This document shows, piece by piece, positions 15,120 through 31,861 of a DNA stretch of 32,000 bases. The DNA lies in contig CAZETV010000001.1 of assembly GCA_964514965.1 (NCBI GenBank), forward strand, positions 330,001 to 362,000, written 5' to 3'. How positions within the stretch are numbered: the first letter of the stretch is position 1; each line of letters begins with the position of its first letter. Below the pieces are notes generated by a model. That model was not told where the DNA came from and searched no databases. It saw only the letters and a list, made by a program, of their open reading frames with translations. The translations under genes were made by a program, and so were the position numbers. This DNA is from Candidatus Hadarchaeota archaeon. Lineage in GTDB: Archaea > Hadarchaeota > Hadarchaeia > Hadarchaeales > Hadarchaeaceae.

Positions 15120-15551
15120 TCAAACTAACAACCATGGAGAGTAAGAGCGCCGGCCGTAGCGGAATATCGGATGCAGCTCGATTTCCCTGACCTCCAACAG
15201 CTGCCTGTATTTTTCGGGATTTCTTATTTTCAGCCTTTGCTTGAGCTGTTTGAATTCGAGTAGGACCCATTCTCTGGAAACCTTGATTTTTTGGATTTTT
15301 GCTGGCTCTCGAATGATTTTTTCTTTTTTAAAGTTGTAACCTCTCCTTCTCCCTTCCTCGTAAACATAATGCAGGTAAAAGCCGATGGCCGAGACCGGGT
15401 CCGAGTGCCCCTTAAATCTGTCAAGTTGGGGGTGTTTTCTCCATCCTTTAGTTTTGCCCATGAGCACCCTTTGCGCGAGCAAGGACTCTCTCCAGAGGGC
15501 CACAAGCCCTATCGCATCGAGATATTTTGGGTGAACGGTCCACAACCTCAA
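15120..15551 (-). CDS. Pyrimidine dimer DNA glycosylase family protein (Pyr_excise/T4 endonuclease V-like family)
   Basis: N-terminus MRLWTVHPKYLDAIGLVALWRESLLAQRVLMGKTKGWRKHPQLDRF matches the conserved opening of this family (MRLWSLHPkYLD..GLvAlWRE.LLAq.VL.g.TkGY..HPQL.RF), recalled from memory. Confidence 0.7.
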   Translation of the reverse strand: MRLWTVHPKYLDAIGLVALWRESLLAQRVLMGKTKGWRKHPQLDRFKGHSDPVSAIGFYLHYVYEEGRRRGYNFKKEKIIREPAKIQKIKVSREWVLLEFKQLKQRLKIRNPEKYRQLLEVREIELHPIFRYGRRSYSPWLLV

Positions 15552-16158: not shown

Positions 16159-16230
16159 CCCATCACCTAGGATAAATATTGGAGGTTTGGTTAGATAAGA
16201 CTGAAGATTGAACTCTGAAAAAAATAAGTA

Positions 16231-16285
16231 ACTATGTTTCTGAACAATTTTTCTGAACTATGTTTCTTAACCTCCTTTCTTAACC
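16231..16285. repeat. Cluster of short direct repeats in the boundary intergenic region
   Basis: ACTATGTTTCT occurs at 16231-16241 and 16257-16267. TTTCTGAAC occurs at 16237-16245 and 16250-16258. TTTCTTAACC occurs at 16263-16272 and 16276-16285. Confidence 0.5.
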
Positions 16286-16348: not shown

Positions 16349-16459
16349 GTGTTGGGCTTGGTGAAGTGTGGGATTTGTAAAAAGGAAGTGCCGGAACAAC
16401 CGAAAATCACATCAGATGGCAAGTGCTCCGTCTGTGGCGCGAAATTAAAAGCGGCCTGA
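16349..16459 (+). CDS. Possible small zinc-ribbon protein (about 32-36 aa)
   Basis: Not in the ORF track because it is too short. Reading from GTG 16361 gives VKCGICKKEVPEQPKITSDGKCSVCGAKLKAA, with stop TGA at 16457-16459. Two CxxC pairs are present. A G-rich SD-like TAGGGGGG lies just upstream. Alternative starts are 16349, 16352 and 16358. The ORF is followed by a GC hairpin and a T-tract. Confidence 0.35.
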   Translation: MLGLVKCGICKKEVPEQPKITSDGKCSVCGAKLKAA

Positions 16460-16465
16460 AAGTGG

Positions 16466-16540
16466 AAAAGCGCGCGCTGGTTTATTCGACACATTAATTA
16501 GCTGGCGCGCGCGAATTTTAATTTATTTCTTTTTTTAATT
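16466..16540 (+). terminator. GC-rich hairpin plus oligo-T tract
   Basis: Self-complementary GCGCGCGC blocks at 16470-16477 and 16505-16512 can pair with a loop of about 27 nt. They are followed by AATTTTAATTTATTTCTTTTTTTAATT. Archaeal termination commonly uses oligo-T tracts. Confidence 0.35.
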
Positions 16541-16547
16541 GTTAGTT

Positions 16548-16655
16548 CAGTGCTAGTAGAACAGGGGCATATAACTCGATTTTTTCGGTCGCTTCGCCAC
16601 GAGGGCTGAGGCTATCTTGACGGCCGCGCTCGGCTTCTCGCAACGATGAGGGTTA
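16548..16655 (-). pseudogene. Decayed fragment of the topA 5' coding region (copy of about 13366-13470)
   Basis: The core 16601-16642 matches 13415-13456 at 40 of 42 nt, in the same orientation. Weaker similarity extends on both sides with 1-nt indels. The minus-strand translation gives CEKPSAAVKIASALVAKRPKK, against TopA residues 18-38 CEKPSAAIKIASALAEKRPEK. Confidence 0.75.
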
Positions 16656-16706
16656 GTGGTGGATAGTCGAGTGGGCTTTTAGTAAAATGAGGGGGAGAAT
16701 CTTGGA

Positions 16707-17048
16707 TTGGAATTCAAAAAAGGAGATAATTCAATAGCTAGCAGAAAAGAAATATTAGATACTGTGGAGGTTGCTCTCAGAGAACTGACGAATGAATTCA
16801 TCCGAAATCCAATGCGTTTCTTCTCCGAAAAAGACTTCCATTGGTATTTCTGTTATCTATTAAACACGAACGAGCTAGTCAAAACCCGGTTTGATGGTTA
16901 CAAGACAATGATTTGCACCAAGAACCTGCCGAAGCATATCAAAAATGATTGCGATACGTTGAAGTCGAGTGGCGCGAGGAACAGGTATATTGCCATTTAC
17001 TACCGAGATCAAACTGGGAGAGTGGAAAAGTTTCGTCGCGTAAGGTAA
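16707..17048 (+). CDS. Hypothetical protein (113 aa), first gene of the McrBC-like module
   Basis: TTG start lies 9 nt after GGGGGAG (16691-16697), and the next ORF follows after 23 nt. I recognise no family. ATG at codon 36 is an alternative start. Confidence 0.4.
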   Translation: MEFKKGDNSIASRKEILDTVEVALRELTNEFIRNPMRFFSEKDFHWYFCYLLNTNELVKTRFDGYKTMICTKNLPKHIKNDCDTLKSSGARNRYIAIYYRDQTGRVEKFRRVR

Positions 17049-17071
17049 TCGCGCGAATCAATGCATAGGGG

Positions 17072-18298
17072 ATGATGTGGTTGGCACAGCGTAAATTTGG
17101 AGGATTCAAATCAATCGTGTTCAGGTCCTGTGATGGGACAAAGAAGGGGGCTCATCGGATATGTTTAGCGCTCAAGAACTTGAAGGTAGATATTGAGCTA
17201 AAAATCACCGCTAAAATTGATAAAAACCTCGTCGGAAAAGTTTCTAATTCATGGAGTCAGGGAAAATACTACCGGGATGCCGCTTGGCTCATGTTTACGA
17301 ATCGAAAAGTTGGCGCGTATAAACATCCTCAACTAACGGTGAACCTGTTTGAGGACGAAGTCTGGATTGGTTTTAGATCCCATGGGGATGATGAGTACGC
17401 TTTCCGATATCCATTTAAAATAGGAGACTATGCTAGAAAACACCCTAAACGTTTTAGAAAGTTGGTAAGCAGCCTTTCCAAAGTGGAGTGGGGATTTGAC
17501 TCCGACGAAAGAACAAATAATTTTACTACTCCTCGGCGCTTTACATCAAGAGAGTTAGAGATAAGACTTCGACAAAAATTCGAATGGATCAACACTAGAT
17601 TCGATAAAAGAGACCCGCTTGCGAAAAATAGCCGAATTGCAGATGAGATAGTAGATATCTTCAGCAGGCTCTATCCCCTCTATGCGATCACCGTGGGCAA
17701 GAGTTTTCAAATTGAAAGGCTTCTACCCGAAAAACAACTAGAGACCGTTGAAATTGTTGACCTCAGCCGTTCCCGCAAAGAAGTTTTGGAAAAAGCTAAA
17801 AAAGTATTCAAAAAGGGCGGCAAAGGCATAGATTTATCAGGCATCTATGCACCCTCTAGGAAAATAAGAGTTCCAATTCGAGAATCCAGAAAAATTGTAA
17901 TTAGATACTATGCCGCACTTTTAGACAAACTCAACCTTAGGCCGGTAGAAATCGGTGGCGAAACTTTACTTGTTGCGCCTGGCATGAGGATACCTCCGGT
18001 TAGAAAAATAAAGAGGTTTAAAGCGTTTTTAAGAAAAATTATAAGGATCATGGGTGGAAATCCAGAAACAGTTAAAATCATGGTTAAGGAACCCACTTCT
18101 GACGCAAGAATCATAGACAAACAGATCGTGTTTAATGCTACCCTGATAAACCATTCGCCCATATTTTGGATGATAATAGCGGCACGAGAGCTAGCATCGC
18201 TTAGATACAAGGAGCATTACCAGCATGTCAAGGCAATGAGCATCCTACTTGAAAGAGCTATAAAACATTTAGACGAAATTGATACCCGCTTTAGCTAA
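17072..18298 (+). CDS. Hypothetical protein (408 aa) with a C-terminal DUF45/YgjP-like region lacking the HExxH histidines
   Basis: Long ORF with island-typical composition. Residues 325-382 align without gaps to the motif region of the DUF45 peptidase at 22224-22976 (..FN..LI.........E...L.K.H), but read ARELASLRYKEH where the peptidase reads CHEVLHLKEKRH. I recognise nothing in the N-terminal half. Confidence 0.6.
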   Translation: MMWLAQRKFGGFKSIVFRSCDGTKKGAHRICLALKNLKVDIELKITAKIDKNLVGKVSNSWSQGKYYRDAAWLMFTNRKVGAYKHPQLTVNLFEDEVWIGFRSHGDDEYAFRYPFKIGDYARKHPKRFRKLVSSLSKVEWGFDSDERTNNFTTPRRFTSRELEIRLRQKFEWINTRFDKRDPLAKNSRIADEIVDIFSRLYPLYAITVGKSFQIERLLPEKQLETVEIVDLSRSRKEVLEKAKKVFKKGGKGIDLSGIYAPSRKIRVPIRESRKIVIRYYAALLDKLNLRPVEIGGETLLVAPGMRIPPVRKIKRFKAFLRKIIRIMGGNPETVKIMVKEPTSDARIIDKQIVFNATLINHSPIFWMIIAARELASLRYKEHYQHVKAMSILLERAIKHLDEIDTRFS

Positions 18299-18399
18299 GA
18301 GGAATCTAATAGTTTCTCCAAAGCGCCTGTGGATCAAGGTAAGATAAGAATTGAAGTGATTTAAAGGTATAAGGTTAAAATTATCCCAACGTTGTATAG

Positions 18400-20562
18400 A
18401 TGTGGTGCAGGATGATGGAAAAGCAAACGCTCGTAAGGCGTAGGGGAGATTTTGAAGAAAAGTTTGATGATTCTAAACTAGGCGTATCGGAAGAAAAATG
18501 GAAGAAATTTTTGGAAAAGTACCCGAGAGATAAGCTCAGCGAATTGGAGATTGACGATTATGTGGAAGGTAAAAGAAAAGAGAGTTTCTGTTGGTGGCTT
18601 GAACATGGGACTAGAAAACTCGGAAGCATGTGGGGTGGGTCAGCGGAAAAGTTTGGGATATATTACAAAAAAGAGCAGGGTAGATACTGGTTTGACAAGT
18701 CAAGGTTTAGGGACGAGAAAGAAGCGTTTTCTAAAGTGAAGGAAGATATCCTAAAATTATTGGACTTCGCTGAGAGGGGAGAATTTGAGAAGGTAGATAG
18801 AGAAATAAATACGATTTGGCCAGTAATGAAGTCAAAAATTATTTCAATGTACTTTCCAGGTAAGATTGTTAATGTACACTCGAGACGAAACATCAAAAAA
18901 ATATCGAATAGATTAGGAGTCGAGTACACCGGACCGATTAAGACAAGCGCAGAGATATTAACTGAGTTGAAAAACAGCGGAGTATTCGATGATTGGAAAG
19001 AAAAATTAACTGCATTTCAATTTGATCAAAAACTAGGCAATTTCGTTTGGAAGAAAGTTCTTAACGAAAATGAACCTGTGGAAGAAAGAAAACCGCCTAA
19101 GGTATGGCTTGAAAAAACATTGGTTTCAGGTAGACCTGATAGAGAATCTGGCCCTTATGCTTTAGGAGAAGCATTATGGTCTCCTCAAACGGATAAACGA
19201 GGTGCCGATATTTATGGAAATATGCGAAAATTGAGCATAGGTGACCAGGTTCTACACCTAGTAGATAATGATCAGATCATTGGGATTTCTAAAGTAAAAT
19301 CCGACCTAATTACTGATTTTCATTGCTTGCCCAGAACCGAGTGGGACGATGGAACTGGAAAGCGGCCGGGATACCTTCGTGAACTAGAGGACTTCAAACG
19401 ATTTGATAACCCTATTCATACATACTCCCAAATTTTAAAAAATGACAAATACAAAGAACTGCTAAAAAATCTATTGAACGGAGGGCACGATCTCTTTTAT
19501 ACAAGCGACCTTAAATTGAGGGAAGGAGCCTATCTAACGGAAGTTCCAGGGGAATTAATGCGAATATTGAGTGAAGAATCTGAGAAACCCACAATTGCGA
19601 TCCAACCTCTGGACCTTCAGCCGACTCTCATTAAAACAAAACTCAAGCTTACTCCAGATGTTCTAGGTCAAGTCTGTGCGAGTTTGAATGCGAGCAGCCA
19701 CGTAATTATAACCGGTCCAGTTGGAACTGGCAAGACCTCATTAGCTGAGGACATATGTCGAGCTGCAACAGAGAACAAGTTCTGCTATGGGTATGTCCTT
19801 ACAACCGCGACATCCGACTGGACCACGTTTGACACGATTGGTGGTTACATGCCGATAGAGGAAGGCAAGTTGAAATTTGAAGAAGGAAAGTTTCTCGATG
19901 CCATTCGAAGGAATAAATGGTTGGTTATAGATGAAATTAACAGGGCCGACATTGACAAGGCCTTCGGACAGTTATTCACAGTTCTCTCTGGACAAAGAGT
20001 TGAATTGCCTTTTAAACATTTCAATGGAAAAGGCATTTCTATTGAAACAACAAACGAGGAAAAAAGCTACTTTGAAGAAATTGCAACTTACAAAGTCGGT
20101 AGAAACTGGAGGATAATTGCCACGATGAACGTTTACGATATGAATTTCTTATTTGAGATGTCATACGCATTCATGAGAAGATTCGCCTTTGTCTACCTAA
20201 ATGTCCCAGAACCCGAGGAGTTTAGAAATTTAATTTCCGAATGGTGCAAGGGAAAGGGGATTTCGGACAAGACCACGGAAAAACTGGAGAAGCTGACAGA
20301 GTTCAAGGAGAGAAAAATTGGTCCCGCGATAATCAAGGATATGATAAACTATATCAAGCATAGAGGGGAGGGAGAAACTCAACTTGCAGAAGCTACCATT
20401 GCATATATTTTGCCCCAACTTGAGGGCATAGAAAAAGAAAGAATTGAAAATGCTTGGAAATACATCGGTAATATTTTTGATGAAAAGGACACCCCGAATA
20501 AGGTAATAAGACCTATATTAAATGAGATGACTGGCCTTGAACTAAAGGAAATTACTGAATAA
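18400..20562 (+). CDS. McrB-family AAA+ (AAA_5) NTPase with long uncharacterised N-terminal extension
   Basis: Walker A GPVGTGKTS (nt 19714-19740), Walker B with the McrB signature WLVIDEINRADIDKAFGQLFTVLSG, IIATMNVYDMN (compare E. coli McrB MNTADRS), and FMRRFAFV. About 415 aa precede the ATPase core. The start may be ATG 18412 or 18415. Confidence 0.85.
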   Translation: MWCRMMEKQTLVRRRGDFEEKFDDSKLGVSEEKWKKFLEKYPRDKLSELEIDDYVEGKRKESFCWWLEHGTRKLGSMWGGSAEKFGIYYKKEQGRYWFDKSRFRDEKEAFSKVKEDILKLLDFAERGEFEKVDREINTIWPVMKSKIISMYFPGKIVNVHSRRNIKKISNRLGVEYTGPIKTSAEILTELKNSGVFDDWKEKLTAFQFDQKLGNFVWKKVLNENEPVEERKPPKVWLEKTLVSGRPDRESGPYALGEALWSPQTDKRGADIYGNMRKLSIGDQVLHLVDNDQIIGISKVKSDLITDFHCLPRTEWDDGTGKRPGYLRELEDFKRFDNPIHTYSQILKNDKYKELLKNLLNGGHDLFYTSDLKLREGAYLTEVPGELMRILSEESEKPTIAIQPLDLQPTLIKTKLKLTPDVLGQVCASLNASSHVIITGPVGTGKTSLAEDICRAATENKFCYGYVLTTATSDWTTFDTIGGYMPIEEGKLKFEEGKFLDAIRRNKWLVIDEINRADIDKAFGQLFTVLSGQRVELPFKHFNGKGISIETTNEEKSYFEEIATYKVGRNWRIIATMNVYDMNFLFEMSYAFMRRFAFVYLNVPEPEEFRNLISEWCKGKGISDKTTEKLEKLTEFKERKIGPAIIKDMINYIKHRGEGETQLAEATIAYILPQLEGIEKERIENAWKYIGNIFDEKDTPNKVIRPILNEMTGLELKEITE

Positions 20563-20575
20563 AAAAGGGATAACG

Positions 20576-21835
20576 ATGGTTAGCGATTGCTGGTCAGATG
20601 AAGATTATCAACATGTTTTGGGTCAGGTAAAACACTATCTTTGGTTATACGTTCATGAAGGTGCAAGTATTGAAGAACTTGAAAATGCTGTTCAAAACCT
20701 GACGAGGCTCGATGGAAAAGATTTGGACTATCTGTCTGTCGTGCACTTTCTTTTGAGCGACGAAGTCAAAATACTCATTGAGGCCATTTCAAGAATTCTC
20801 CGGAGGCTTTCACACTCGACGCAGACGGAAGTCGTTGCGAACAAGGGTTTTGTAAAAGGGAGGATAGATTGGAATCTAACGATAAAGGAGAGGTACGCTC
20901 AAGGATACAACCCAACTATTTTTGTGTGCAGGCCTCCTTCAAGGGTATACGATCTTCCTGAGAATCAGTTACTAAAATTTCTCCTTGTACATATGAAAAG
21001 GATGATAGAACAGACTGCGTCGCTTCAAAAAATAGAGGAAAAAGACATCAGATTAGAAGAGCTTAAAACAGAAGAAAGGGAAAAATGGACGGAAAGAGTA
21101 TCATGGCTTAAATTTCACATCAATAATGCACTAAAACATGTTTACCTGAGAGAGGTCAAGTTACCGGATCAAGTAAATGAACGGATGATAAGAAGGGCTA
21201 GATTGTCAAGAAACAAAGATTATGAAAATATTGTGAACAGTTATTCTTTACACCGGAAAATAGTTCAGAAATCAGATGCAAAAGCATTGAGAGAGCTCAT
21301 AGAAAGGAGGGTCCTAGAGCCCCTGGAAAAAGATACTTTGTATGAGTTGTATGTTCTATTTGAAGTCATGGACTCGCTGGGCAAACCTGAGGAGCTTAAT
21401 CTAGTAAGACCTGGAGCGAAATCGATAGGATCTTTTAAAATCAATGGGGCGACCATCCGGGTTCACTTTCAACGAGTTAGAGGATTATTCAAAGTGAGTA
21501 AGTACAAACAAATCTTCGATGATTATGAGTTGGATGTCAGTTCAAGACGTCCCGATATCATCCTTCAATTTGAGAAGGAACCTAAATTCATGATAATTGA
21601 AGTTAAACGGACGACAAATAGGGACTACATTGTGGATAGTGTTTACAAAGTTTTAGGGTATCTGGCTGATTTCGAAAAGTTTTTTACTCTAAAACAGAAG
21701 CCCAAAGGCGTGTTGGTCGTTTGGAATATTGAGCGAAAGAGAAAGACAGAGCAAGATGTATCTATTTTGGCTCATAATAAGATCGCAGGATTTATCAAAG
21801 AAACTGTCGATATGCGTGGAAGCACTTTTAGATGA
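20576..21835 (+). CDS. McrC-like PD-(D/E)xK nuclease subunit
   Basis: Starts 13 nt after the McrB-like gene. McrC-like elements are LPENQLLKFLL and LYELYVLFEVM. The C-terminal nuclease motif is RRPDIILQF...FMIIEVKRT (D327, E342, K344). Confidence 0.7.
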   Translation: MVSDCWSDEDYQHVLGQVKHYLWLYVHEGASIEELENAVQNLTRLDGKDLDYLSVVHFLLSDEVKILIEAISRILRRLSHSTQTEVVANKGFVKGRIDWNLTIKERYAQGYNPTIFVCRPPSRVYDLPENQLLKFLLVHMKRMIEQTASLQKIEEKDIRLEELKTEEREKWTERVSWLKFHINNALKHVYLREVKLPDQVNERMIRRARLSRNKDYENIVNSYSLHRKIVQKSDAKALRELIERRVLEPLEKDTLYELYVLFEVMDSLGKPEELNLVRPGAKSIGSFKINGATIRVHFQRVRGLFKVSKYKQIFDDYELDVSSRRPDIILQFEKEPKFMIIEVKRTTNRDYIVDSVYKVLGYLADFEKFFTLKQKPKGVLVVWNIERKRKTEQDVSILAHNKIAGFIKETVDMRGSTFR

Positions 21836-21947: not shown

Positions 21948-22142
21948 ATGCCTAGGTGCTCGGTCTGCGGGCGGGAGTTTCCGGAGAGCCAGCTGCGCCG
22001 CTGCTACGATTGTGGCAAGGCATACTGCCCTGAGTGCGCCGAGAAGAACCCTACGATAAAGGAACTTGACATCTGCCCGGACTACAAGGAGATCTTCGAG
22101 GCCGAGGAGGACTACTGGGGTTGGGAAGAAGAAGAGTGGTAG
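21948..22142 (+). CDS. Small zinc-ribbon protein with acidic Trp-rich C-terminal tail
   Basis: 64 aa. ATG lies 8 nt after GGTGA. It has three Cys pairs (CSVC, CYDC, CPEC) and the tail EAEEDYWGWEEEEW. It is strongly GC-rich (41/60 at 21961-22020) against low-GC neighbours. Confidence 0.6.
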   Translation: MPRCSVCGREFPESQLRRCYDCGKAYCPECAEKNPTIKELDICPDYKEIFEAEEDYWGWEEEEW

Positions 22143-22223: not shown

Positions 22224-22976
22224 CTAGCCTATAAAATCGGCCAGAAACGTTGAACGGGGATACTCTTGAACAAAGAACCAGTATTCGAACAAACTGCTCT
22301 CCAATTGTTTGTAATTCTCAAATTCGCGCCCCATCTCCTCCCAAAAAGCTTTATCGTGACGCTTTTCCTTCAGGTGCAAAACTTCGTGACAAACCACGTA
22401 CCTAACGAGTTCCCTCGGCAGACAAATCAGCCAGAAGTTAAAGCTCAAATTTCCCTTGGACGAGCAGCTGGCCCATTTGGTTTTTTGTCTCTTTATGAAT
22501 ATTCTGTTGAACTCCACGCCAAATTTTTTGCTGTACTCCTCGGCCGCTGGCACAAGCTCACGAAGGAGTTTTTTCTTCAAGATGTTAACGAGCCGCCTGA
22601 GGTGATCCTGATCCCTTAAGTTGCATTCAATCCGCTTTTCATCAAAATCGATCTTTAGCGATCCATTTTCATGAACCTCAAAAAAATCCCCAAAAATGAA
22701 TAAACCTCTGCCGTTTTTCTTTTGATTTTTAATCTTCTCTATTGCTTTTTGGATTTCCTCATGTTTCTTGGATATCCAGTTCATCTTTCTCTCAAACAAG
22801 GGAGTTTCGTCTTTCCAGCTCTTCGGAAGGATTGCCATCAGTTCTCCAGTTTTAAATTCCAACCTAGGGTATCTTACATCTCTTCGCTCGACCTTGTATG
22901 GTAAGTCCGTCCCGTTCACTTGAATGGACTTACTAGAACCCTTTGAGACCCTTGATGATTTTTTCATATACCTCAT
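22224..22976 (-). CDS. DUF45/YgjP-type (M48-like) zinc metallopeptidase
   Basis: KWASCSSKGNLSFNFWLICLPRELVRYVVCHEVLHLKEKRHDKAFWEEM matches the family signature (WGSC ... fN..L...P....dYVvvHEl.HL.e.nHs..FW). The ORF overlaps the hsdR 3' end by 44 nt, or 35 nt if it starts at ATG 22967. Confidence 0.85.
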   Translation of the reverse strand: MRYMKKSSRVSKGSSKSIQVNGTDLPYKVERRDVRYPRLEFKTGELMAILPKSWKDETPLFERKMNWISKKHEEIQKAIEKIKNQKKNGRGLFIFGDFFEVHENGSLKIDFDEKRIECNLRDQDHLRRLVNILKKKLLRELVPAAEEYSKKFGVEFNRIFIKRQKTKWASCSSKGNLSFNFWLICLPRELVRYVVCHEVLHLKEKRHDKAFWEEMGREFENYKQLESSLFEYWFFVQEYPRSTFLADFIG

Positions 22977-25950
22977 TCCTCTCCTTTAGCGGCAACTTCT
23001 TCCTGAGGAATTTCCTGATCTCTCTGCCGACCTCCTTCAAAATTGTGGGTTTTTTGTTCCATCCCTTAAACAACTTTTCTGACTTTTCCAAACGCCCCCA
23101 TAGGGATTTTACTTCTCCAATCAGCTTTTCGGACTTCCCCATTTTTTCCTCCAATGCCACTAACAAGAAATATTCCGGCTCTGAGAGCTTCAACTCCTTC
23201 TGTCTTTTTTCCAGGTCCTGTGTCTCATGGACTATCTCAGACAACCGCTCGTATGCCTCTTTAACATCTATCTTCTTCTCCTTCCATTTCCTCACTATTC
23301 GCTCCACTTTCCTCGCTATCGGCTCATAGAGCAATTTCTGGGACCTATCGACCAAAACGTACTTGTTAAGCGCGAAGACCATGTCGTAGACTCTGTCGGT
23401 CATGCTCGAGTGAACTTTCCCAAGTTTGTCCAAATATTCATCATCCAGTTTCAGAACTGGAAACTCTTCTTTCATCTTTACATCCAATGTTTTATGAATG
23501 GTCTCAACGGTGCGGTTGAAATATTTCTTGAAGTATTCTTTAACTTTCTCCAGCTCTTCTCGATCCGGTCTAACGATCCACTTATCGCGGGAGTTATAGA
23601 CGGCCGTCAACCACTTGAATCTCTCGATGTCTCTTGATTCCAGATAGCGTGGACCAAGGAACTCGTAAATTCTCCGTAGCCTATCGTATTCCAAAAGGAA
23701 TTCCTTCTCAGCCTTGTCGTCGTGAAACAACATTTTAATTGCCGACTTCAGGGTTTCTCTATCGGTTCTCGTTCTATCCAGCCCTTTAAACAATTCCTCT
23801 GTTTCTTCTAACCGTTCCTTAAATTCCCTCACCTTTTCCTTCAAATCCACTGCGACGTACCTGATGTCTTGCTTCTGATAAATTGCCAACGCCTTTTCGA
23901 ATTCCTTGAGAATACCAATGTAGTCTATTATAAGCCCGGACTCTTTCACCCCCATGAAAGGCCTGTTGGTTCTAGCTATGGCTTGTAGCAGCCTGTGCTC
24001 TTTGAGGGGCTTATCGAGATACATCACTTCCAATATGGGTGCGTCAAAACCCGTAAGCAACATGTCTGTGACGATGAGAATTTTTGGATATTCCTCTTCT
24101 TTGAATTTCCTGATTATCTCTCTTCGAATCTCATCGATTTGCTTGTCCTGGTACCTTCCCCTTAGCTCTCGGTAGTAACGCATGATGAGTTCTGGATCGG
24201 TGTGCGGGTCGAATGTCATCACGACCTCCGTGTACTCGGGAGGTAGCAATCGGTCGAGCTTTTCCTTGTAGGTGATGCACGCTTCCCTGCACGCTGCCAC
24301 CACCATGCCCTTGAATTTCCCGTTGAGGTTCTCCTTAAAGTGGTTCGCGATATCTTCGGCTATGGTCTCTATCCTCCTCGGATTTTTGAGGAAGACCACT
24401 ACGTCGTTCAGCCTCCTGCTGATCCTCCGTTCAACTCTTTTCTGAAAATCTTCGGGTATTTCCTCCAGTTCTTGGGCGAGGAAATTTTCGAGCCGCTTTT
24501 TATTTAAACCTACTTTCTTCTCCATCCTCGTCTGGACGACTATGGGAAGAGTGAATCCATCCCTTATGGAATCCTCGATGAAGTATTTATGGAGGTAGAG
24601 TTCCTTCTGGCTGGGATAGCTGAAGGTGAGATAGGTATCCCTCTTCTTTTTCGTGAGAGGGGTTCCGGTGAAAGCAAAAAAGAACGCATTTATCAAAACA
24701 TCCCTCATTTGCTCGGCAAGTTTTCCGTACTGGGTCCTGTGTCCTTCGTCTATTATTGCGACCACGTTTTTCCTATTGGAAATTACTTCTTCCGATTCTT
24801 TTTCCAGTCCTAACGTCGAGAGGTCTTCTCTGAACTTATGTACAAGCGTGATGAAAATCCCCCTCTTCCCCCGGCACTCGTCATGGGTCAAAACTTCCTT
24901 CAGGTTTTTCACCGAGGAGATAACTTCGGGTTTGGCTATTCCTAGATCCAGATAAGAAAATTCGTCCCTCAGCTGCTCCTCCAGCTCATCCCGATCTACT
25001 ATGAGAAATATAGTTGGGTTCTCGAGTTTTGGGTGTCTGTAGAGCTTGTAAGTCGCGAAAATCATGGCGAGGGTTTTCCCAGACCCCTGCCAGTGCCAGA
25101 CCAGACCAGAATTCTTTTCTTCTTTTCCCTCCAAATTGCCTATCACCCGGTTGTAGATACGGTTTGCAGCATCGTACTGCATAAATCTGGGTAGGACCTT
25201 GGTAGACTTTCCGCGTTCCTCTCTCGCGAAAGTAAAGTTCACCAGTAGATCTGTTAGAGTGGATTTAGAGAGCATCTCAAGGGTCGCGTCCAGCTCATCC
25301 TCGAAGCCTTCCTCCCTCCAAAGATAAGTCTCCACATCTTTCAGGCCCAAGACATTCGGAAAATATCTGGCGGTTGCCTCGGCTGCGATGCTGAACTGCA
25401 CATACTTAAACAGTTCTGGAACGATATTTTCGTAATAATTTTTGATCTGTTTGTATGCTGTTTCCCAGCTGGCGCTAGGTTCGGTGGGGTTTTTGCACTC
25501 TATGGTCACGAGGGGTATCCCGTTGACGTAGAGAACTATATCTGGCCTTATCCTCCCGCGGGAACTCTCGAACCACACTTGGTTGCTGACCACGAACTCG
25601 TTGTTATCAGGATTTTTGCGATCGAGCAAGTCGATGTATTTCAGCTCTCTCGTGCGCTCCAACTTTATAGCTATGCCCTGTTTCAAAGACCTCAGGATAT
25701 GCTTGGACCCCTCAAAACTAGCCGGCTTGCTCTTGAGCTCGGCTAGAATCCGGTTCACGTCGCTTTCCGACAGCCCCAGATCCTCGTTTATCATTCTTAT
25801 GGCTCGAATAAAATCGTTAATGAGCAGGGGTTCAGCGTAATCTTCTCGCTCAAGCTCTTCCCCAGGGATGTATTTCCAACCCTTCCCCTTCAGCTTCTCG
25901 ATAATGTAATCCTCAACCGTGGATTTTTCTGTAAAAACTGGCATCCTCAT
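22933..25950 (-). CDS. hsdR: Type I restriction enzyme, R subunit
   Basis: N-terminal PD-(D/E)xK (IRPDIVLYVNGIPLVTIECK), helicase motif I WQGSGKT, motif II IIDEGHRTQYG, motif VI-like QAIARTNR, and a long helical C-terminal domain. 1005 aa. Confidence 0.95.
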   Translation of the reverse strand: MRMPVFTEKSTVEDYIIEKLKGKGWKYIPGEELEREDYAEPLLINDFIRAIRMINEDLGLSESDVNRILAELKSKPASFEGSKHILRSLKQGIAIKLERTRELKYIDLLDRKNPDNNEFVVSNQVWFESSRGRIRPDIVLYVNGIPLVTIECKNPTEPSASWETAYKQIKNYYENIVPELFKYVQFSIAAEATARYFPNVLGLKDVETYLWREEGFEDELDATLEMLSKSTLTDLLVNFTFAREERGKSTKVLPRFMQYDAANRIYNRVIGNLEGKEEKNSGLVWHWQGSGKTLAMIFATYKLYRHPKLENPTIFLIVDRDELEEQLRDEFSYLDLGIAKPEVISSVKNLKEVLTHDECRGKRGIFITLVHKFREDLSTLGLEKESEEVISNRKNVVAIIDEGHRTQYGKLAEQMRDVLINAFFFAFTGTPLTKKKRDTYLTFSYPSQKELYLHKYFIEDSIRDGFTLPIVVQTRMEKKVGLNKKRLENFLAQELEEIPEDFQKRVERRISRRLNDVVVFLKNPRRIETIAEDIANHFKENLNGKFKGMVVAACREACITYKEKLDRLLPPEYTEVVMTFDPHTDPELIMRYYRELRGRYQDKQIDEIRREIIRKFKEEEYPKILIVTDMLLTGFDAPILEVMYLDKPLKEHRLLQAIARTNRPFMGVKESGLIIDYIGILKEFEKALAIYQKQDIRYVAVDLKEKVREFKERLEETEELFKGLDRTRTDRETLKSAIKMLFHDDKAEKEFLLEYDRLRRIYEFLGPRYLESRDIERFKWLTAVYNSRDKWIVRPDREELEKVKEYFKKYFNRTVETIHKTLDVKMKEEFPVLKLDDEYLDKLGKVHSSMTDRVYDMVFALNKYVLVDRSQKLLYEPIARKVERIVRKWKEKKIDVKEAYERLSEIVHETQDLEKRQKELKLSEPEYFLLVALEEKMGKSEKLIGEVKSLWGRLEKSEKLFKGWNKKPTILKEVGREIRKFLRKKLPLKERNEVYEKIIKGLKGF

Positions 25951-25962
25951 CCTCCAGTTAGT

Positions 25963-26817
25963 TCACCCAAAACTCGGTTTTTCTGAAACATTTTTAGAAA
26001 ACAACTTGGACATTCTTTCCAAAACTCCTTTTGTTATCTGAGTCAGACGATCAAATTTTTTTATTATTGGATGTTCAACCGTGTAGACCATTAGCGGATT
26101 GTGTTCATACTCCGGATATGGATATCTTGAGGAAATCGCATGTGGACATGATATCAGGGATAAAAAGAGTAGATGGGTACTGCAAATTGCTTGAGGAATG
26201 CTAAAGGACACTATAAGCTCTTCTATTAATTCTGGAGTTAATGATTCAAACTTTTTCATTTCCCCCTTGATATTCTCGCGCAACTCTGGATGTTCCTCAG
26301 CAAGAGTATTTGCCACTTCTTGATAAAGAAATTTTAAGTTCTCTATTTCATTTTTATCAATCGTTATTTTTTGGCTTTCGATTTCTGCTTCTAAATTAAT
26401 TAATTCTGAGATCATCTTCTCTATTTCTTCATCGGAAATTTTGCGGTCAGAACGTTTAAGATAAGATTCGAATTTATCTAACATTTCGTCAAATTTTTCT
26501 GAACCTATATTCTCATATTCTTTGAATAGTGTGGTATGTTTCAATTTCGGAAGTTTTTTGATTCGTTCTTGAAACCTTTTAACTTTATTTTTTAGCCCTT
26601 CTACAACCTTGAGGTAAATTTCTAACGAATCATGACCAATTTCTTCTAAATCATCCTCACTAATTATGTTCTGATGTAACCCAAAAGATTTTGCGGCTTT
26701 CTCTACGGCTTGTTCTAAATAAAAAACCGCTTGTGGGTACAACTTTTTTTCAAATAAACACTTTGAGGCGTTTAGGTCACGTTCCGCAATGTCTAGAAGT
26801 ACACTTTTCGTGTTCAT
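25963..26817 (-). CDS. HEPN-like domain protein with a large coiled-coil insertion
   Basis: The N-terminus LDIAERDLNASKCLFEKKLYPQAVFYLEQAVEKAAKSFGL matches the first two HEPN helices (A..DL..A..l....y..a.f...QavEKalKa). A HEPN-like ISSRYPYPEYEH segment lies near residue 230. The two are separated by about 150 aa of charged heptad-like sequence. The start overlaps the hsdS stop by 4 nt. Confidence 0.5.
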   Translation of the reverse strand: MNTKSVLLDIAERDLNASKCLFEKKLYPQAVFYLEQAVEKAAKSFGLHQNIISEDDLEEIGHDSLEIYLKVVEGLKNKVKRFQERIKKLPKLKHTTLFKEYENIGSEKFDEMLDKFESYLKRSDRKISDEEIEKMISELINLEAEIESQKITIDKNEIENLKFLYQEVANTLAEEHPELRENIKGEMKKFESLTPELIEELIVSFSIPQAICSTHLLFLSLISCPHAISSRYPYPEYEHNPLMVYTVEHPIIKKFDRLTQITKGVLERMSKLFSKNVSEKPSFG

Positions 26818-28052
26818 AATTTTACTCTCCTCTTCCCGGTTAACAAATCGTTCATCAGTCCTTTCTTGAGCCTCTCGAGTTTTTCCTTCCTCTTTCTTTC
26901 GAGTTCGAGCTTTTTGTCAACGGTTGAGAGAATTTCGGCGATTTTTTGTTGCTCCAGAATTGGCGGGAGAGGGACTCGGTAGTTCTCGATTTCTTGTCTT
27001 CTTATCGCTTTGAAAGTTGAACCAGCTGATAAAGCTTCGAACTTCTTGCCATTGAACTTCAAGTAGTAGAACAAGAATAAATGATGAATCTTACTTTGCT
27101 TGACCCTAATAGTAGAAACACCTCTTCCAATACAACATTCAAATGGAGCAATATTAACGTCTCCAACTGGGGCCCTTACTGAAAGTAAAATGTCGTTAGA
27201 CTCAGCTGTCTTGACGGGATTAGAACAGTAAATCGTCGGTGAGGGGTAAATTTCCCCAAATTCCATTTTTCCTTGTAGGAACGGTAAACCTTCCCCTCTT
27301 TTATTATAAGTAGAGGAAGGAGGAGACTGCCCCATTATTAACTCGGCAATGTTTTTATCTCCAAGCCCAACAACATTCCACTCTCTAGGGATCTCGCAAC
27401 CCAGCTCCTTGTTGAACTTGAACTCCTTGTGCCCTATGCCCTTCGTAAGCAGCTCCTGCATCAGGCCCCGCTTCAGCCGCTCGGTTCGGGCTATGGCCTC
27501 GTCGACACGCTGGATCGCTTGGTAGACGGTGGAGAGGATCTCGGCGATGCGGCGCTGTTCGGGGAGGGGTGGGCGGGGAACTGAGTAGTTCTCAATCTCT
27601 TGTTTTCTTATCGCTTTGAAAGTCGAACCAGCTGATAAAGCTTCAAACTTCTTGCCATTAAGCTTCAGGTAATAGAATAAGAATAAATGATTGAATTTAT
27701 CCTGTTTGGCTCTGATCGCTGATAAACCTCTGCCAATACAACATCTAAATGGAGCAATATTAACCTCCCCAACAGGCGCCCTTACGGAAAGTAAAATGTC
27801 ATTGGGCTCAGCGATCTTAATGGGATTTGAACAATAAATTGTTGGGGAGGGATAAATTTCTCCAAATTCTAGTTTTCCCTGAAGAAAAGGTAGGCCTTCT
27901 CCTTTCTCGTTATAAGTTGAAGATGGAGGCGATTGCCCTATTATTAGCTCCACAACATTCTGGTCCCTTAATCTCACAACCCCCCACTCCTTTGGGATTT
28001 TGCTGATTGGAGTTTGTTTATGGTGGTTAGCTGTCTGCATCATTTTAACCAA
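26814..28052 (-). CDS. hsdS: Type I restriction enzyme, S (specificity) subunit with two near-identical TRDs
   Basis: Two TRD units (aa 19-176 and 221-378) are each followed by the conserved P.LPEQ..IAEILS helix. C-terminal coiled-coil LERLKKGLMNDLLTG is present. 412 aa. Confidence 0.9.
   Translation of the reverse strand: MVKMMQTANHHKQTPISKIPKEWGVVRLRDQNVVELIIGQSPPSSTYNEKGEGLPFLQGKLEFGEIYPSPTIYCSNPIKIAEPNDILLSVRAPVGEVNIAPFRCCIGRGLSAIRAKQDKFNHLFLFYYLKLNGKKFEALSAGSTFKAIRKQEIENYSVPRPPLPEQRRIAEILSTVYQAIQRVDEAIARTERLKRGLMQELLTKGIGHKEFKFNKELGCEIPREWNVVGLGDKNIAELIMGQSPPSSTYNKRGEGLPFLQGKMEFGEIYPSPTIYCSNPVKTAESNDILLSVRAPVGDVNIAPFECCIGRGVSTIRVKQSKIHHLFLFYYLKFNGKKFEALSAGSTFKAIRRQEIENYRVPLPPILEQQKIAEILSTVDKKLELERKRKEKLERLKKGLMNDLLTGKRRVKL
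26919..27392 (-). repeat. hsdS internal direct repeat, copy B (C-terminal TRD)
   Basis: Encodes aa 221-378. Hand alignment to aa 19-176 gives 128/158 identical residues. The DNA is also visibly similar over most of the length, with an offset of 606 nt. Confidence 0.85.
27525..27998 (-). repeat. hsdS internal direct repeat, copy A (N-terminal TRD)
   Basis: Encodes aa 19-176 and is the partner of 26919-27392. Confidence 0.85.
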
Positions 28053-28707
28053 ACCTCAGTTCCATTCGGCAGGAGGGGCAGGTGAAACTTCTGAATCTTG
28101 AGTATAAATTGAAAGTTATGCCACACTTTGGGCATTTCGTTTTAATTGAGTCAACACTAGCGGCTTCCTTTAGCGCCATGAGTATGCCACCTATGACTAA
28201 TCCTGTAAACCCACCAACCAACGCTCCACCAATTCTGTCTTTTGATGATAACAATCCACCCAAAACAGCACCGCCTGCTGTGAGCCCCATGCGAAGGTTG
28301 TTATTCTCAATAGCCTGTTTCATTTTTTGTAGAATTTTCTGGATATTTTGCCAATCTTCAATTTTTGTAGGCTCATACAAAATGTAATCCGTCAAATACG
28401 GAACAGGAAAATGGACTCTGTTATTGATATCTTCCACCACGAAAAGGGGTTTATTTGATCTTCTTGTCAGGCCCACTTCAAAAGCAACCCAATTTTGTGT
28501 GAAGTCCGAAGATTTCAGATTCTCCGTTAAAAATAGAAAAACCGCATCAGATGTTGCAATATTTTTTTCTATTTTCTTAAAGGGCGGCTCACTTTCCGGC
28601 GTAAATTCCATAAAAAGCGGCGAGATACCCGCAGATTTAAAATTAAGATCCGTTATTCTGATTAAGTCTTCGTCCTTTTTGCTGTGTGAGATAAACACTT
28701 GAACCAT
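28045..28707 (-). CDS. TIR-like domain protein with glycine-zipper hydrophobic segment and C-terminal zinc ribbon
   Basis: aa 1-110, VFISHSKKDEDL...SDAVFLFLTENLKSSDFTQNWVAFEVGL...KPLFVV, follows the TIR_2/TIR-like pattern (vFISys..D ... vlvllS..s..S.Wv..EiG). aa 140-179 form a Gly-zipper, GLTAGGAVLGGLL....IGGALVGGFTGLVIGGILMAL. aa 191-213 read CPKCG...CPSC. GGAG lies 9 nt upstream. The stop overlaps the hsdS start by 8 nt. Confidence 0.55.
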   Translation of the reverse strand: MVQVFISHSKKDEDLIRITDLNFKSAGISPLFMEFTPESEPPFKKIEKNIATSDAVFLFLTENLKSSDFTQNWVAFEVGLTRRSNKPLFVVEDINNRVHFPVPYLTDYILYEPTKIEDWQNIQKILQKMKQAIENNNLRMGLTAGGAVLGGLLSSKDRIGGALVGGFTGLVIGGILMALKEAASVDSIKTKCPKCGITFNLYSRFRSFTCPSCRMELRFG

Positions 28708-28956
28708 CTAATTATCTCCAATATTTATTAGGTTCGCCGCTCGACAGTAGGTTCTCGCATTATGGTCATGGGTGGCATCTAATGGCGACAACCGATCAAC
28801 GTGTAAACCAGGCCCGCGGTGGCAAGAGTGGTGGTAGTAGCAGTATTTAAAGGAGAAATGGTGTAAGTAATTATTGGCGGGTAAGTCCAAGTTGGTAACG
28901 TGTACCGGATGGTGCACTTCATGTCCGGCTTGGGTCCGCCGCTTGTTCACTGCCAA
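28708..28956 (-). CDS. Doubtful His/Cys-rich small ORF (82 aa) filling the DUF3800-TIR spacer
   Basis: TTG start only, inside the last codons of the DUF3800 gene; the stop abuts the TIR-like ATG. It has 12 His in 82 aa. Composition is GC-richer than the neighbours. No family is recognised, so this may be non-coding. Confidence 0.2.
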   Translation of the reverse strand: MAVNKRRTQAGHEVHHPVHVTNLDLPANNYLHHFSFKYCYYHHSCHRGPGLHVDRLSPLDATHDHNARTYCRAANLINIGDN

Positions 28957-29615
28957 AGAATCATTTCTCCCTTATTGACAATTTTATCCTCAATAATTTT
29001 GAAATACCTGTCATCACCGGAGTTGAACTTTCTGTTGATGCTCCAGACTACAAAATCGACCACCTGTAGCTCATTTTTAGAATAAGACGGAGCGTGATTA
29101 ATCTCGATGCTCCGGCTTTCAAGAAAAGTGGCCCTTTTTCTTTTTATGTAACTGTCAAAATCTGCGCGGAACAAAGTGTTGGTATGTTTCTTGTCCACTG
29201 TTATCACGAGCTTCCCGACCTTGACGTTCAACCGATCCATGAGCTTCCCACAGAGGTAGTTGTAAAGTTTATCCTTCACCTCATAGAGGTAATCAAATAT
29301 CTTGGACTTTTCGACGACTATCGCGTAAATATCGCAGTTGGCCACCCGGACTTGATTTAACACGTACTCCCGTATCATTCTGTTCGAGTTGTTGGCCTTG
29401 ATCTCTGGGAGCTGCCTGAGTTTCTTATTGAGCTTTCTCTCCCTCAGCCGCTTCATTATTCTAGAAAGATTTTTCGGATGGTCAACAAGGACCGCAGCAA
29501 CCACGAAATATTTTGAGCCGTATTTTCCCAAGTCGCCGCTTTCATCTATGTAAACACGTTTGGTCCAGTTCATCCGCATAACCCCGGAAAATAAAACCAG
29601 AGGTGGCCCCCACAA
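28947..29615 (-). CDS. DUF3800 family protein
   Basis: RVYIDESGDLGKYGSKYFVVAAVLV matches the DUF3800 N-terminal signature (iyiDESG....... yfvl..v.v). The likely true start is ATG 29579 or 29573; the track start at 29615 is a TTG 2 nt from the hsdM stop. Confidence 0.65.
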   Translation of the reverse strand: MWGPPLVLFSGVMRMNWTKRVYIDESGDLGKYGSKYFVVAAVLVDHPKNLSRIMKRLRERKLNKKLRQLPEIKANNSNRMIREYVLNQVRVANCDIYAIVVEKSKIFDYLYEVKDKLYNYLCGKLMDRLNVKVGKLVITVDKKHTNTLFRADFDSYIKRKRATFLESRSIEINHAPSYSKNELQVVDFVVWSINRKFNSGDDRYFKIIEDKIVNKGEMILWQ

Positions 29616-29616
29616 C

Positions 29617-31383: not shown

Positions 31384-31405
31384 ACATCTCCAATTTTCCG
31401 GAAAC

Positions 31406-31418
31406 TTTAAATTATATA
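31406..31418 (-). promoter_or_regulatory. Candidate TATA box for the hsdM operon (minus strand TATATAATTTAAA)
   Basis: Located 23 nt upstream of the hsdM ATG (31383) on the minus strand, in the 76-nt gap after the radC-like gene. Motif only. Confidence 0.3.
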
Positions 31419-31459
31419 CGCTTTTTTGTTTTAGCTTACTAAATAAGCTTTATGATAAC

Positions 31460-31861
31460 CTAATGGATAATCCCGCGAGCCCTCAAGCTTGTGTAACCCT
31501 CGCCCCCAATTATCACATGATCCTGAATCCAAACACCTATCGTCTTGCCGATCCTGACTAGCTTTTTGGTGACTTCGATATCCGACTCGCTGGGCTCTGG
31601 ACTCCTACTTGGATGATTGTGGACGAGAATTATGGAAGCAGCAGAATTTTTGAGCGCACTCTCGAACACCTCCCGAGGGCGGAGCAGGGTTATGTCGGCG
31701 GCTCCACCTGATATTGTCTCACAATTTATCAGCCTGTTTTGGAGATCGAGGGAAATAAGCTTGATCACCTCGTGCTTGAGGACCCGGATCTCCTCTCTGA
31801 CCAACTCGAAGACATCTTCCGGCCTTGCAACATGAACCCGCTCGTTTTCAGCAGGCCTCAT
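31460..31861 (-). CDS. RadC-like JAB/MPN domain protein (short form)
   Basis: ILVHNHPSRSPEPSESDIEVTKKLVRIGKTIGVWIQDHVIIG matches the RadC signature (HNHPSG.pePS..D...T..L......lgi...DH.Iig). At 133 aa it lacks the N-terminal HhH part of full-length RadC. Confidence 0.85.
   Translation of the reverse strand: MRPAENERVHVARPEDVFELVREEIRVLKHEVIKLISLDLQNRLINCETISGGAADITLLRPREVFESALKNSAASIILVHNHPSRSPEPSESDIEVTKKLVRIGKTIGVWIQDHVIIGGEGYTSLRARGIIH

Follow-up and report, generated by a model that had tools for sequence, protein, structure and literature searches.

The EcoKMcrBC type IV restriction system of Escherichia coli is a two-gene unit, with mcrB first. McrB has an AAA+ motor with Walker A, Walker B, NxxD and RRF motifs, and its partner carries a PD…(D/E)xK motif followed by a Y-x-h-h-x-Y motif. 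These features recur in a locus of Candidatus Hadarchaeota archaeon described here, which lies in a 32,000-nucleotide (nt) stretch of contig CAZETV010000001.1 (positions 330,001 to 362,000; this whole stretch is called the window, and all coordinates are relative to its first letter). There, the genes for a McrB-like ATPase and a McrC-like partner are preceded on the same strand by two open reading frames (ORFs), ORF1 and ORF2. The original prediction raised the possibility that all four form an expanded McrBC module. We consider it likely, instead, that mcrB and mcrC (18400-21835) are a functional two-gene McrBC-type type IV restriction unit in a mosaic island, with no four-gene system.

The NxxD motif is the defining signature of McrB GTPases, and fusions of EVE domains to McrB have been described (PMC11090510). 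In the archaeal McrB proteins of Staphylothermus marinus (6n0s) and Thermococcus gammatolerans (6ut3-8), an EVE/YTH-like reader of the PUA superfamily stands directly before the motor. VcaM4I (6yex) is a modification-dependent endonuclease that joins a PUA/EVE domain to an HNH nuclease, and PD-T4-1 is a single-gene E. coli anti-phage system with a PD-(D/E)xK nuclease (PMC9519451, PMC10952713).

The Hadarchaeota locus contains the following features (aa, amino acids).

16707-17048, + strand: ORF1, 113 aa, TTG start
16665..17048, + strand: ORF1 with its conserved upstream stretch, best read as the remnant of a roughly 200-aa gene, outside the McrBC unit
17072-18298, + strand: ORF2, 408 aa, intact, from a rare unannotated two-domain family
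17072..17701, + strand: ORF2 N-terminal domain (aa 1-210), predicted YktB/DUF1054/DUF2461-like fold
17744..18286, + strand: ORF2 C-terminal domain (aa 225-405), common to sacsin-like giants
18299..18399, + strand: spacer between ORF2 and mcrB, 101 nt, with A/T-rich boxes
18400-20562, + strand: McrB-like AAA+ protein, 720 aa
18445..19029, + strand: McrB N-terminal domain (aa 16-210), like the N-terminal half of PD-T4-1
19087..19599, + strand: McrB middle domain (aa 230-400), predicted EVE/PUA-like modified-base reader
19672..20562, + strand: McrB AAA+ motor (aa 425-720) with Walker A, Walker B, NxxD and RRF
20576-21835, + strand: McrC-like partner, 419 aa
21545-21610, + strand: predicted PD-(D/E)xK core of the McrC-like partner (aa 324-345)

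The arrangement is as first described: four ORFs on the + strand with gaps of 23 nt (ORF1-ORF2), 101 nt (ORF2-mcrB) and 13 nt (mcrB-mcrC). As in E. coli, a type I restriction-modification (R-M) system adjoins. Unlike EcoKMcrBC, in which the reader is of the ADAM/DUF3578 type, the locus has a predicted EVE/PUA-like reader and an extra PD-T4-1-like N-terminal domain; its McrC-like protein is too divergent for a significant profile match, and the locus is of archaeal type. The predicted position of the reader, directly before the motor, is that of the archaeal McrB proteins, and the AAA+ region matches 6ut3, but here there is an additional N-terminal domain of ~210 aa and the reader is nearest to VcaM4I/EVE, not YTH. 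In VcaM4I the effector is the fused HNH nuclease, whereas here there is an AAA+ motor with a separate predicted PD-(D/E)xK partner.

The McrB-like ATPase

The 720-aa protein is, to judge from its motifs and profile matches, a McrB-type AAA+ protein. Its translation contains GPVGTGKT (Walker A), LVIDEINRADID, ATMNVYDMN (NxxD) and FMRRFAF (RRF), and its Walker B motif reads DEINRA. The motifs cited in the original prediction for this protein (DEINRA, MN..D and RRF) and for its partner (PD...EVK) are all present in the translations. In an alignment of 24 homologues, the M-N..D columns of the NxxD motif (MNVYDMN here) are nearly invariant. Pfam AAA_5 matches aa 434-595 (E 7e-18), and the solved McrB chains of E. 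coli and T. gammatolerans match at 1.8e-8 to 4e-6; of these, 6hz4 (1.8e-8), 6ut6 and 6ut3 lie between 1.8e-8 and 1.3e-6. The NCBIfam McrB model gives a partial match (2.6e-8) that is far under its cut-off. An alternative start at 18412 in a public gene call gives a McrB of 716 aa.

Among 171 McrB homologues, the motor is 40-73% identical and the N-termini are variable, including EVE, MrcB_N, DUF8426, Mrr_N and others. To the motors of two metagenomic loci (L008 and L010) the aa identity is 70-72%. A scan of genome contigs with McrB gave no match.

The region before the motor has two parts. An AlphaFold2 (AF2) model of aa 1-420 is confident only at aa 230-400, with a predicted local distance difference test (pLDDT) value of about 90, and is unreliable at aa 1-229 (pLDDT <50). 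In Foldseek searches, the best match of aa 230-400 is VcaM4I (6yex, E 2e-8). Also matched are EVE domains (2gbs, 2p5d, 1zce, 2hd9), ASCH and YTH domains, THYN1 bound to 5-methylcytosine (5mC) DNA (5j3e) and the N-terminal domain of S. marinus McrB (6n0s, E 1.6e-4). Another protein (P0064) contains a DUF8426 segment to which the middle domain is homologous. The structural model identifies this domain, directly before the motor, as a predicted EVE/PUA-like modified-base reader.

The N-terminal part (aa 16-210) matches positions 15-213, out of 383, in the PADLOC profile PDLC04021 (PD-T4-1), with E 2.1e-40. Positions 214-383 of the profile, presumably the nuclease part, are unmatched, pointing to a common N-terminal module in a different system. 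Homology of this McrB domain to the N-terminal domain of ORF2 was considered and rejected, as no hidden Markov model (HMM) match was found.

The McrC-like partner and the conserved gene pair

The 419-aa protein is treated here as a divergent McrC. Its translation contains RRPDII, 14 further residues and IIEVKRT. Across eight sequences (27-68% identity), R325, P326, D327, E342, V343 and K344 are invariant, as are G95, W99, T102, R106, E129 and N130. At the level of motifs, the protein carries a predicted PD-(D/E)xK nuclease. Compared by eye, the E. coli McrC motifs KGRIEF..TIR, ANRIIK, TDI-x12-VDAKYY and YQLMNY match the McrC-like protein in order and spacing; the N-terminal ones correspond to GRI(D/E)(W/F)..T and (E/A)N(Q/R)(L/I)(L/I)K.

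The Pfam scores are all sub-threshold. DUF2357, which in McrC is the N-terminal helical bundle with its stalk, matches the protein at 1e-3 (E 1.1e-3, 18.7 bits against a cut-off of 23.3) and is seen in three of the eight family members; VRR_NUC matches at 7e-4. Among relatives, McrBC reaches 6e-3 (PF10117, 5.7e-3 in one family member) and PDDEXK_7 0.045. The family is also sub-threshold against NucS_C, a PD-(D/E)xK family. Searches of the PDB with the single sequence and with a profile returned only a chance Xre match, and hhalign comparisons of four-, six- and eight-sequence profiles with E. coli McrC were not significant (probability <1%).

The genomic context of the pair is consistent. In the seven metagenomic loci with the closest McrBs (L004-L010), the gene directly 3' of McrB encodes a protein 66-69% identical to the McrC-like protein. 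Homologues with 42-53% identity directly follow McrB in a Methanobacteriaceae metagenome-assembled genome (MAG; L042) and in L044, and homologues with 27-35% identity do so on Priestia megaterium and Haloplanus plasmids, where the pairs are annotated as "AAA/MoxR family ATPase" and "hypothetical protein". In L004-L010, L042, L044, L046 and L047, each McrB is followed by a McrC-like homologue of 411-455 aa, with small gaps or overlaps, and the genes upstream of McrB all differ. Because the McrB-McrC order is conserved while the upstream genes differ, the two genes are best regarded as a unit. At the nucleotide level, homology between the window and related McrBC loci (~70%) covers only ~19600-21800, which corresponds to the motor and McrC. 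The recognition of a McrB/McrC-like pair in the original prediction is upheld by the AAA_5 and McrB chain matches, the NxxD motif and the predicted EVE-like reader, and by a partner with an invariant PD…EVK that directly follows McrB in all of the related loci examined.

By analogy with the family, the McrB reader domain would bind foreign DNA at its modified bases, the hexameric McrB ring would hydrolyse GTP and translocate, and McrC would insert into the ring and cleave the DNA.

Two further observations concern the surroundings of such pairs. A 64-aa zinc-ribbon protein with weak FYVE/ribbon matches is encoded 112 nt after mcrC (21948-22142, + strand), and a 37%-identical homologue is found ~1.3 kb upstream of McrBC in L008 (5957-6103) and L009 (4621-4767). 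It may be a small protein that recurs beside McrBC pairs of this clade, or its recurrence may be due to chance. The Methanobacteriaceae MAG has two tandem McrBC-type pairs (L042, 6001-15744). The first consists of an EVE/DUF8426-type McrB and a 427-aa partner from the same McrC-like family as in the window. The second follows a 297-aa gene and consists of a MrcB_N-type protein of 853 aa and a partner with DUF2357 and PDDEXK_7.

A mosaic region

The reading of ORF1, ORF2, mcrB and mcrC as one co-evolving expanded McrBC system is extremely improbable. The genes are on one strand, with short gaps, a common low GC content and no clear terminator between them. However, the comparative data largely refute the idea: homologues of ORF1 or ORF2 and of McrB/McrC were never found together elsewhere in the co-occurrence survey, and tblastn and HMM searches of the seven related McrBC loci found neither ORF1, ORF2 nor ORF1 relatives. 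ORF1 and ORF2 homologues occur only in other contexts, an outcome that the original prediction itself named as refuting it, the low GC belongs to a whole island, and ORF1 is internally deleted and truncated. From these sequence comparisons the region is a mosaic, and the nearest relatives of each segment come from a different context: next to AIPR for ORF1, next to GmrSD for ORF2, and in many McrBC loci for the McrB motor and McrC. The reader region of McrB adds affinities to PD-T4-1 and EVE.

Neither ORF1 nor ORF2 has a match with E<0.1 in Pfam, NCBIfam, PHROGs or PADLOC, in agreement with the earlier statement that they belong to no known family.

ORF1

ORF1 is best read, from its alignment with relatives, as the decayed remnant of an unrelated gene of ~200 aa. 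A search of 5.8 billion clusters gave only two relatives, P0004 and P0005 (77 aa). An AIPR abortive-infection gene adjoins the ORF1 relative on the contig of P0004. At the nucleotide level, 16665-16924 and 16926-17016 are homologous to the locus L003, with 80-81% identity. Between these two blocks there is a clean in-frame deletion of 153 nt (51 codons) relative to L003. As identified by tblastn with P0004, the deletion takes out VHQEYG…RLDIAVLD…AAIEFGTEK, which by inspection includes a D…ExK-like core. Homology stops after 17016 at the 3' end, and ~45 C-terminal residues are gone. The start codon is TTG in ORF1 and an in-frame GTG at the matching position in L003, and the upstream region is conserved. 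P0005 retains the beginning of the segment deleted from ORF1; thus, the deletion occurred on the side of the window. A continuation of ORF1 in a different reading frame or at another site of the window was considered and rejected, as tblastn with P0004 finds no further piece. For the retained parts, the ratio of non-synonymous to synonymous substitution rates (dN/dS) is 0.16, a value that stems mostly from divergence before decay and is no proof of present function.

ORF2: a rare two-domain family

ORF2 is most likely, on the sequence evidence, an intact, selected and separately mobile island gene that is independent of McrBC. It would most likely act alone, as a small sensor-plus-output protein. 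Only one close homologue was identified (P0002), with 79% aa identity. The nucleotide identity of 82% is limited to 17082-18282, so that homology ends at the gene borders. P0002 occurs on two contigs, where the gene for a type IV enzyme with GmrSD_N and GmrSD_C follows ~150 nt downstream and three unrelated small genes precede P0002; there is no McrBC nearby. The dN/dS of ORF2 is 0.16, which indicates purifying selection. An exhaustive profile search found the family in 57 representative clusters among 1.84 billion representatives, and tblastn searches of plasmid and phage collections found no ORF2 homologues.

The AF2 model of ORF2 has a pLDDT of 81.7, with the N-terminal domain mostly >85, and the family alignment separates two domains. 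In Foldseek searches, the N-terminal domain matches Bacillus subtilis YktB (2a8e) with E 1.8e-5, probability 1.00 and a template modelling (TM) score of 0.64 normalised to the target, and 3mqz with TM 0.58. One family member has a Pfam match to DUF2461 (2.6e-4) and another to DUF1054 (3e-3). ORF2 itself is under every Pfam threshold. Unlike the proteins of these families, ORF2 has an extra C-terminal domain. To our knowledge, no function is known for YktB/DUF1054-DUF2461-like domains, and a literature search on DUF2461 and DUF1054 found nothing functional.

The HMM of the N-terminal domain also matches a segment just N-terminal of AAA+ in some McrB homologues, in P0086 with E 3.6e-17 and more weakly in P0079, P0078, P0083, P0071, P0075 and P0072. 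P0071 was labelled "YktB" independently by the Joint Genome Institute (JGI). In these proteins the ORF2-type domain fills the slot that the EVE-like reader occupies in the McrB of the window. The YktB-like domain behaves as a promiscuous reader-type module. Two side observations were made by eye: P0013 has the ORF2 N-terminal domain followed by HNH-type Cys/His motifs, and in P0015 and P0020 the two-domain core is preceded by a further 130-160 aa that look PUA/EVE-like.

The C-terminal domain (~180 aa) also forms the C-terminus of proteins of 1,270-1,600 aa in many of 28 metagenome loci and in one Bathyarchaeia MAG. An N-terminal Pfam SACS domain (PF25794) was found in five of the six giants scanned, as well as in P0006. 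A search for SACS, a GHKL-type ATPase domain, in ORF2 gave no match. Thus ORF2 shares with the sacsin-like giants the C-terminal domain of roughly 180 aa but is without their SACS/GHKL-type ATPase region and middle part of roughly 1,000 aa.

Conserved in the C-terminal domain is the motif TD(A/G)…FN…FW..ARELA(Y/S)…H..M. Foldseek gave weak matches to the catalytic domains of M1 aminopeptidases, which are zincins (E 0.2-0.9); a fold search against BFVD was uninformative. An hhalign comparison with the YgjP-like protein of the window aligns 71 columns, with RELAS on HEVLH (P=0.048, probability 1%). These columns fall on the I.FN..L…HExxH…H pattern of the YgjP-like/DUF45 zincins, which are associated with type I R-M systems, although the likeness is statistically not significant. 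HExxH itself is absent from the C-terminal domain, being replaced by RELAS in ORF2 and by RELA(Y/S/G/A) across the family, with RELA(S/Y) the counterpart of the DUF45 motif. The domain may be a degenerate zincin, which we regard as a lead, not a result. With RELAS or RELAY in place of the HExxH ligands, ORF2 is more likely to bind or regulate than to act as a peptidase.

The 121 neighbours of ORF2-family genes include methyltransferases (MTases), GmrSD, AIPR, YgjP, ThaI, AbiJ and helicases, with no recurrent partner. No McrB or McrC homologues were found in ~30 ORF2-family loci.

Two loci of the family deserve separate description. On a 197-kb metagenome contig (L015, 855-12009), one cluster combines the genes for a DEAD/ResIII helicase of 963 aa and for a 418-aa ORF2-like protein with both domains, two small antisense genes, and the genes for a giant of 1,422 aa with the ORF2 C-terminal domain and for Nmad3, which is nucleotide-modification-associated. 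The ORF2-like gene is ~0.9 kb upstream of the giant's gene, and the giant is the only one scanned that has no Pfam SACS match. This cluster is possibly a larger system involving the ORF2 family. The second locus, from the Bathyarchaeia MAG (L011, 2260-4498), was the one locus found in a scan of genome contigs with the ORF2 C-terminal domain. It encodes a 395-aa protein with this domain and a different N-terminus, next to an ORF that is integrase-like by a reading of its translation, a hint that members of the family travel on integrative elements.

A trans-acting role for ORF2 as an accessory of adjacent type IV enzymes, either as a detachable reader/specificity subunit or as a regulator, with ORF1 still a remnant, is unlikely. 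It would account for the type IV enzyme gene that directly follows both close homologues on their own strand and for the presence of the ORF2-type domain in the reader slot of the McrB homologues named above, one of which bears the YktB-like JGI name. However, the other ORF2-family genes have no McrB/McrC within 5-10 kb and no single recurrent neighbour, and McrBC and GmrSD are unrelated in mechanism. Domains of the reader type are promiscuous, as the copy in P0013 illustrates, and the McrB of the window already has its own predicted EVE-like reader. Homology with L001, the GmrSD locus, ends at the borders of the ORF2 gene.

Very unlikely, in our estimation, is that ORF2 has no part in defence and lies in the island by chance, as mobile-element cargo or as a housekeeping-like protein, for instance a YktB-type protein of general nucleotide or nucleic-acid metabolism. 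YktB/DUF1054 and DUF2461 have no established defence role, ORF2 matches nothing in PADLOC or PHROGs, and one family member adjoins a tRNA methyltransferase gene and another the integrase-like ORF. Against this, the family neighbourhoods are rich in R-M and defence genes, the ORF2-type domain is fused to McrB motors and, in P0013, precedes HNH-type motifs, and the patchy, rare distribution of the family is typical of defence genes.

Spacers and transcription

The 101-nt spacer before mcrB contains two A/T-rich boxes, TTTAAA at 18360 and TTAAAATTA at 18375-18383. The presence of the latter box was correctly noted in the original prediction, but it is statistically unremarkable: 55 TATA-like octamers were found in the window, against an expectation of 50.9 ± 6.9. 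Since such boxes occur at chance frequency, the TTAAAATTA box alone proves nothing. The spacer shows no relation to the regions that precede the McrB homologues, and bacterial promoter and terminator scans of the window remained at background level. The spacer is possibly the archaeal promoter of the mcrBC unit.

The 23-nt gap between ORF1 and ORF2 has no obvious box. The rearrangement that truncated ORF1 probably brought ORF2 beside it, and ORF2 may now be transcribed from the conserved upstream region of ORF1.

Points that weigh against the two-gene interpretation

Several points count against a two-gene unit with unrelated upstream genes. The assignment of McrC lacks significance at the profile level, with all Pfam matches under the gathering thresholds and hhalign probabilities <1%. 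No terminator is evident between ORF2 and mcrB, and co-transcription by read-through is possible. Both close ORF2 contexts have a type IV enzyme as the next gene downstream on the same strand (McrB here and GmrSD in L001), which could reflect a link, with n=2. By Rosetta-stone logic, the fusion of YktB-like domains to McrB motors in relatives hints at cooperation. The in-frame nature of the ORF1 deletion, together with its dN/dS, means that a shortened ORF1 protein may be functional, and the decay of ORF1 is judged against a single full-length relative.

The surrounding defence island

GC content drops from ~0.53 to ~0.40 near 16.2 kb and is low until the end of the window. The low-GC stretch holds genes for zinc-ribbon and YgjP-like proteins, HsdR/HsdS/HsdM with interleaved HEPN, TIR and DUF3800 genes, and RadC. 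The left flank has housekeeping genes of archaeal appearance (topoisomerase, NOG1-type GTPase, aIF5A). The low GC that was taken to unite the four genes is real, but it is common to everything from ~16.2 kb onwards. Because it extends over the whole island, low GC marks the island and not a four-gene unit. The low-GC block is a whole defence island of at least 16 kb, with no specific tie among the four genes. Neither tRNA genes nor Rfam families were identified in the window, and no flanking direct repeats delimiting the island ends were found in it.

Two genes adjoin the left border, one for a MarC membrane protein and one for a pyrimidine-dimer DNA glycosylase (Pyr_excise, E 2.6e-22; 15120-15551, - strand). 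Where the GC content has just dropped, after MarC and before the island genes, a 13-nt unit (AACTATGTTTCTG-like) is repeated four times in tandem (16230-16281). It is followed by a 32-codon ORF with a GTG start (16361-16459, + strand) that encodes a CxxC…CxxC zinc ribbon (VKCGICKKEV…CSVCGAKLKAA). After this ORF there is a GC-rich palindrome (GCGCGCGC…GCGCGCGC) and then a long T-rich run (16469-16550). Together, 16361-16550 looks like a small gene with a putative terminator at the left edge of the island.

On the right, 22224-31861 (- strand) is a type I R-M operon with embedded extra genes.

22224-22976, - strand: YgjP-like, overlaps HsdR
22933-25950, - strand: HsdR
25963-26817, - strand: HEPN
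26814-28052, - strand: HsdS, with an internal 300-nt direct repeat
28045-28707, - strand: TIR
28947-29615, - strand: DUF3800
29617-31383, - strand: HsdM
31460-31861, - strand: RadC

Significance

The McrBC pair is a system of a known kind, and ORF2 is the only mildly novel element, of modest specialist interest. For annotation, the lesson is that close-packed low-GC genes on the same strand of a defence island should not be taken for one system without comparative support. The pair is a further example of archaeal type, whose N-terminal region has two parts, first a PD-T4-1-like and then an EVE-like one. The family of its McrC-like partner is hypothetical in public records; Pfam detects it at sub-threshold level and NCBIfam not at all.

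ORF2 defines a C-terminal domain in common with prokaryotic sacsin-like giants. Through the McrB-motor fusions, it gives the YktB/DUF1054-DUF2461-like domains a first contextual link to modification-dependent restriction. ORF2 could represent an undescribed family of small reader-plus-output proteins from restriction and defence islands, and in the boldest version of this idea, which we consider unlikely, it would be a detachable specificity or regulatory subunit for neighbouring type IV enzymes. If this were true, ORF2 would serve McrBC in the window and its closest relative would serve GmrSD, so that the architecture of reader and McrB, fused elsewhere, would here be split.

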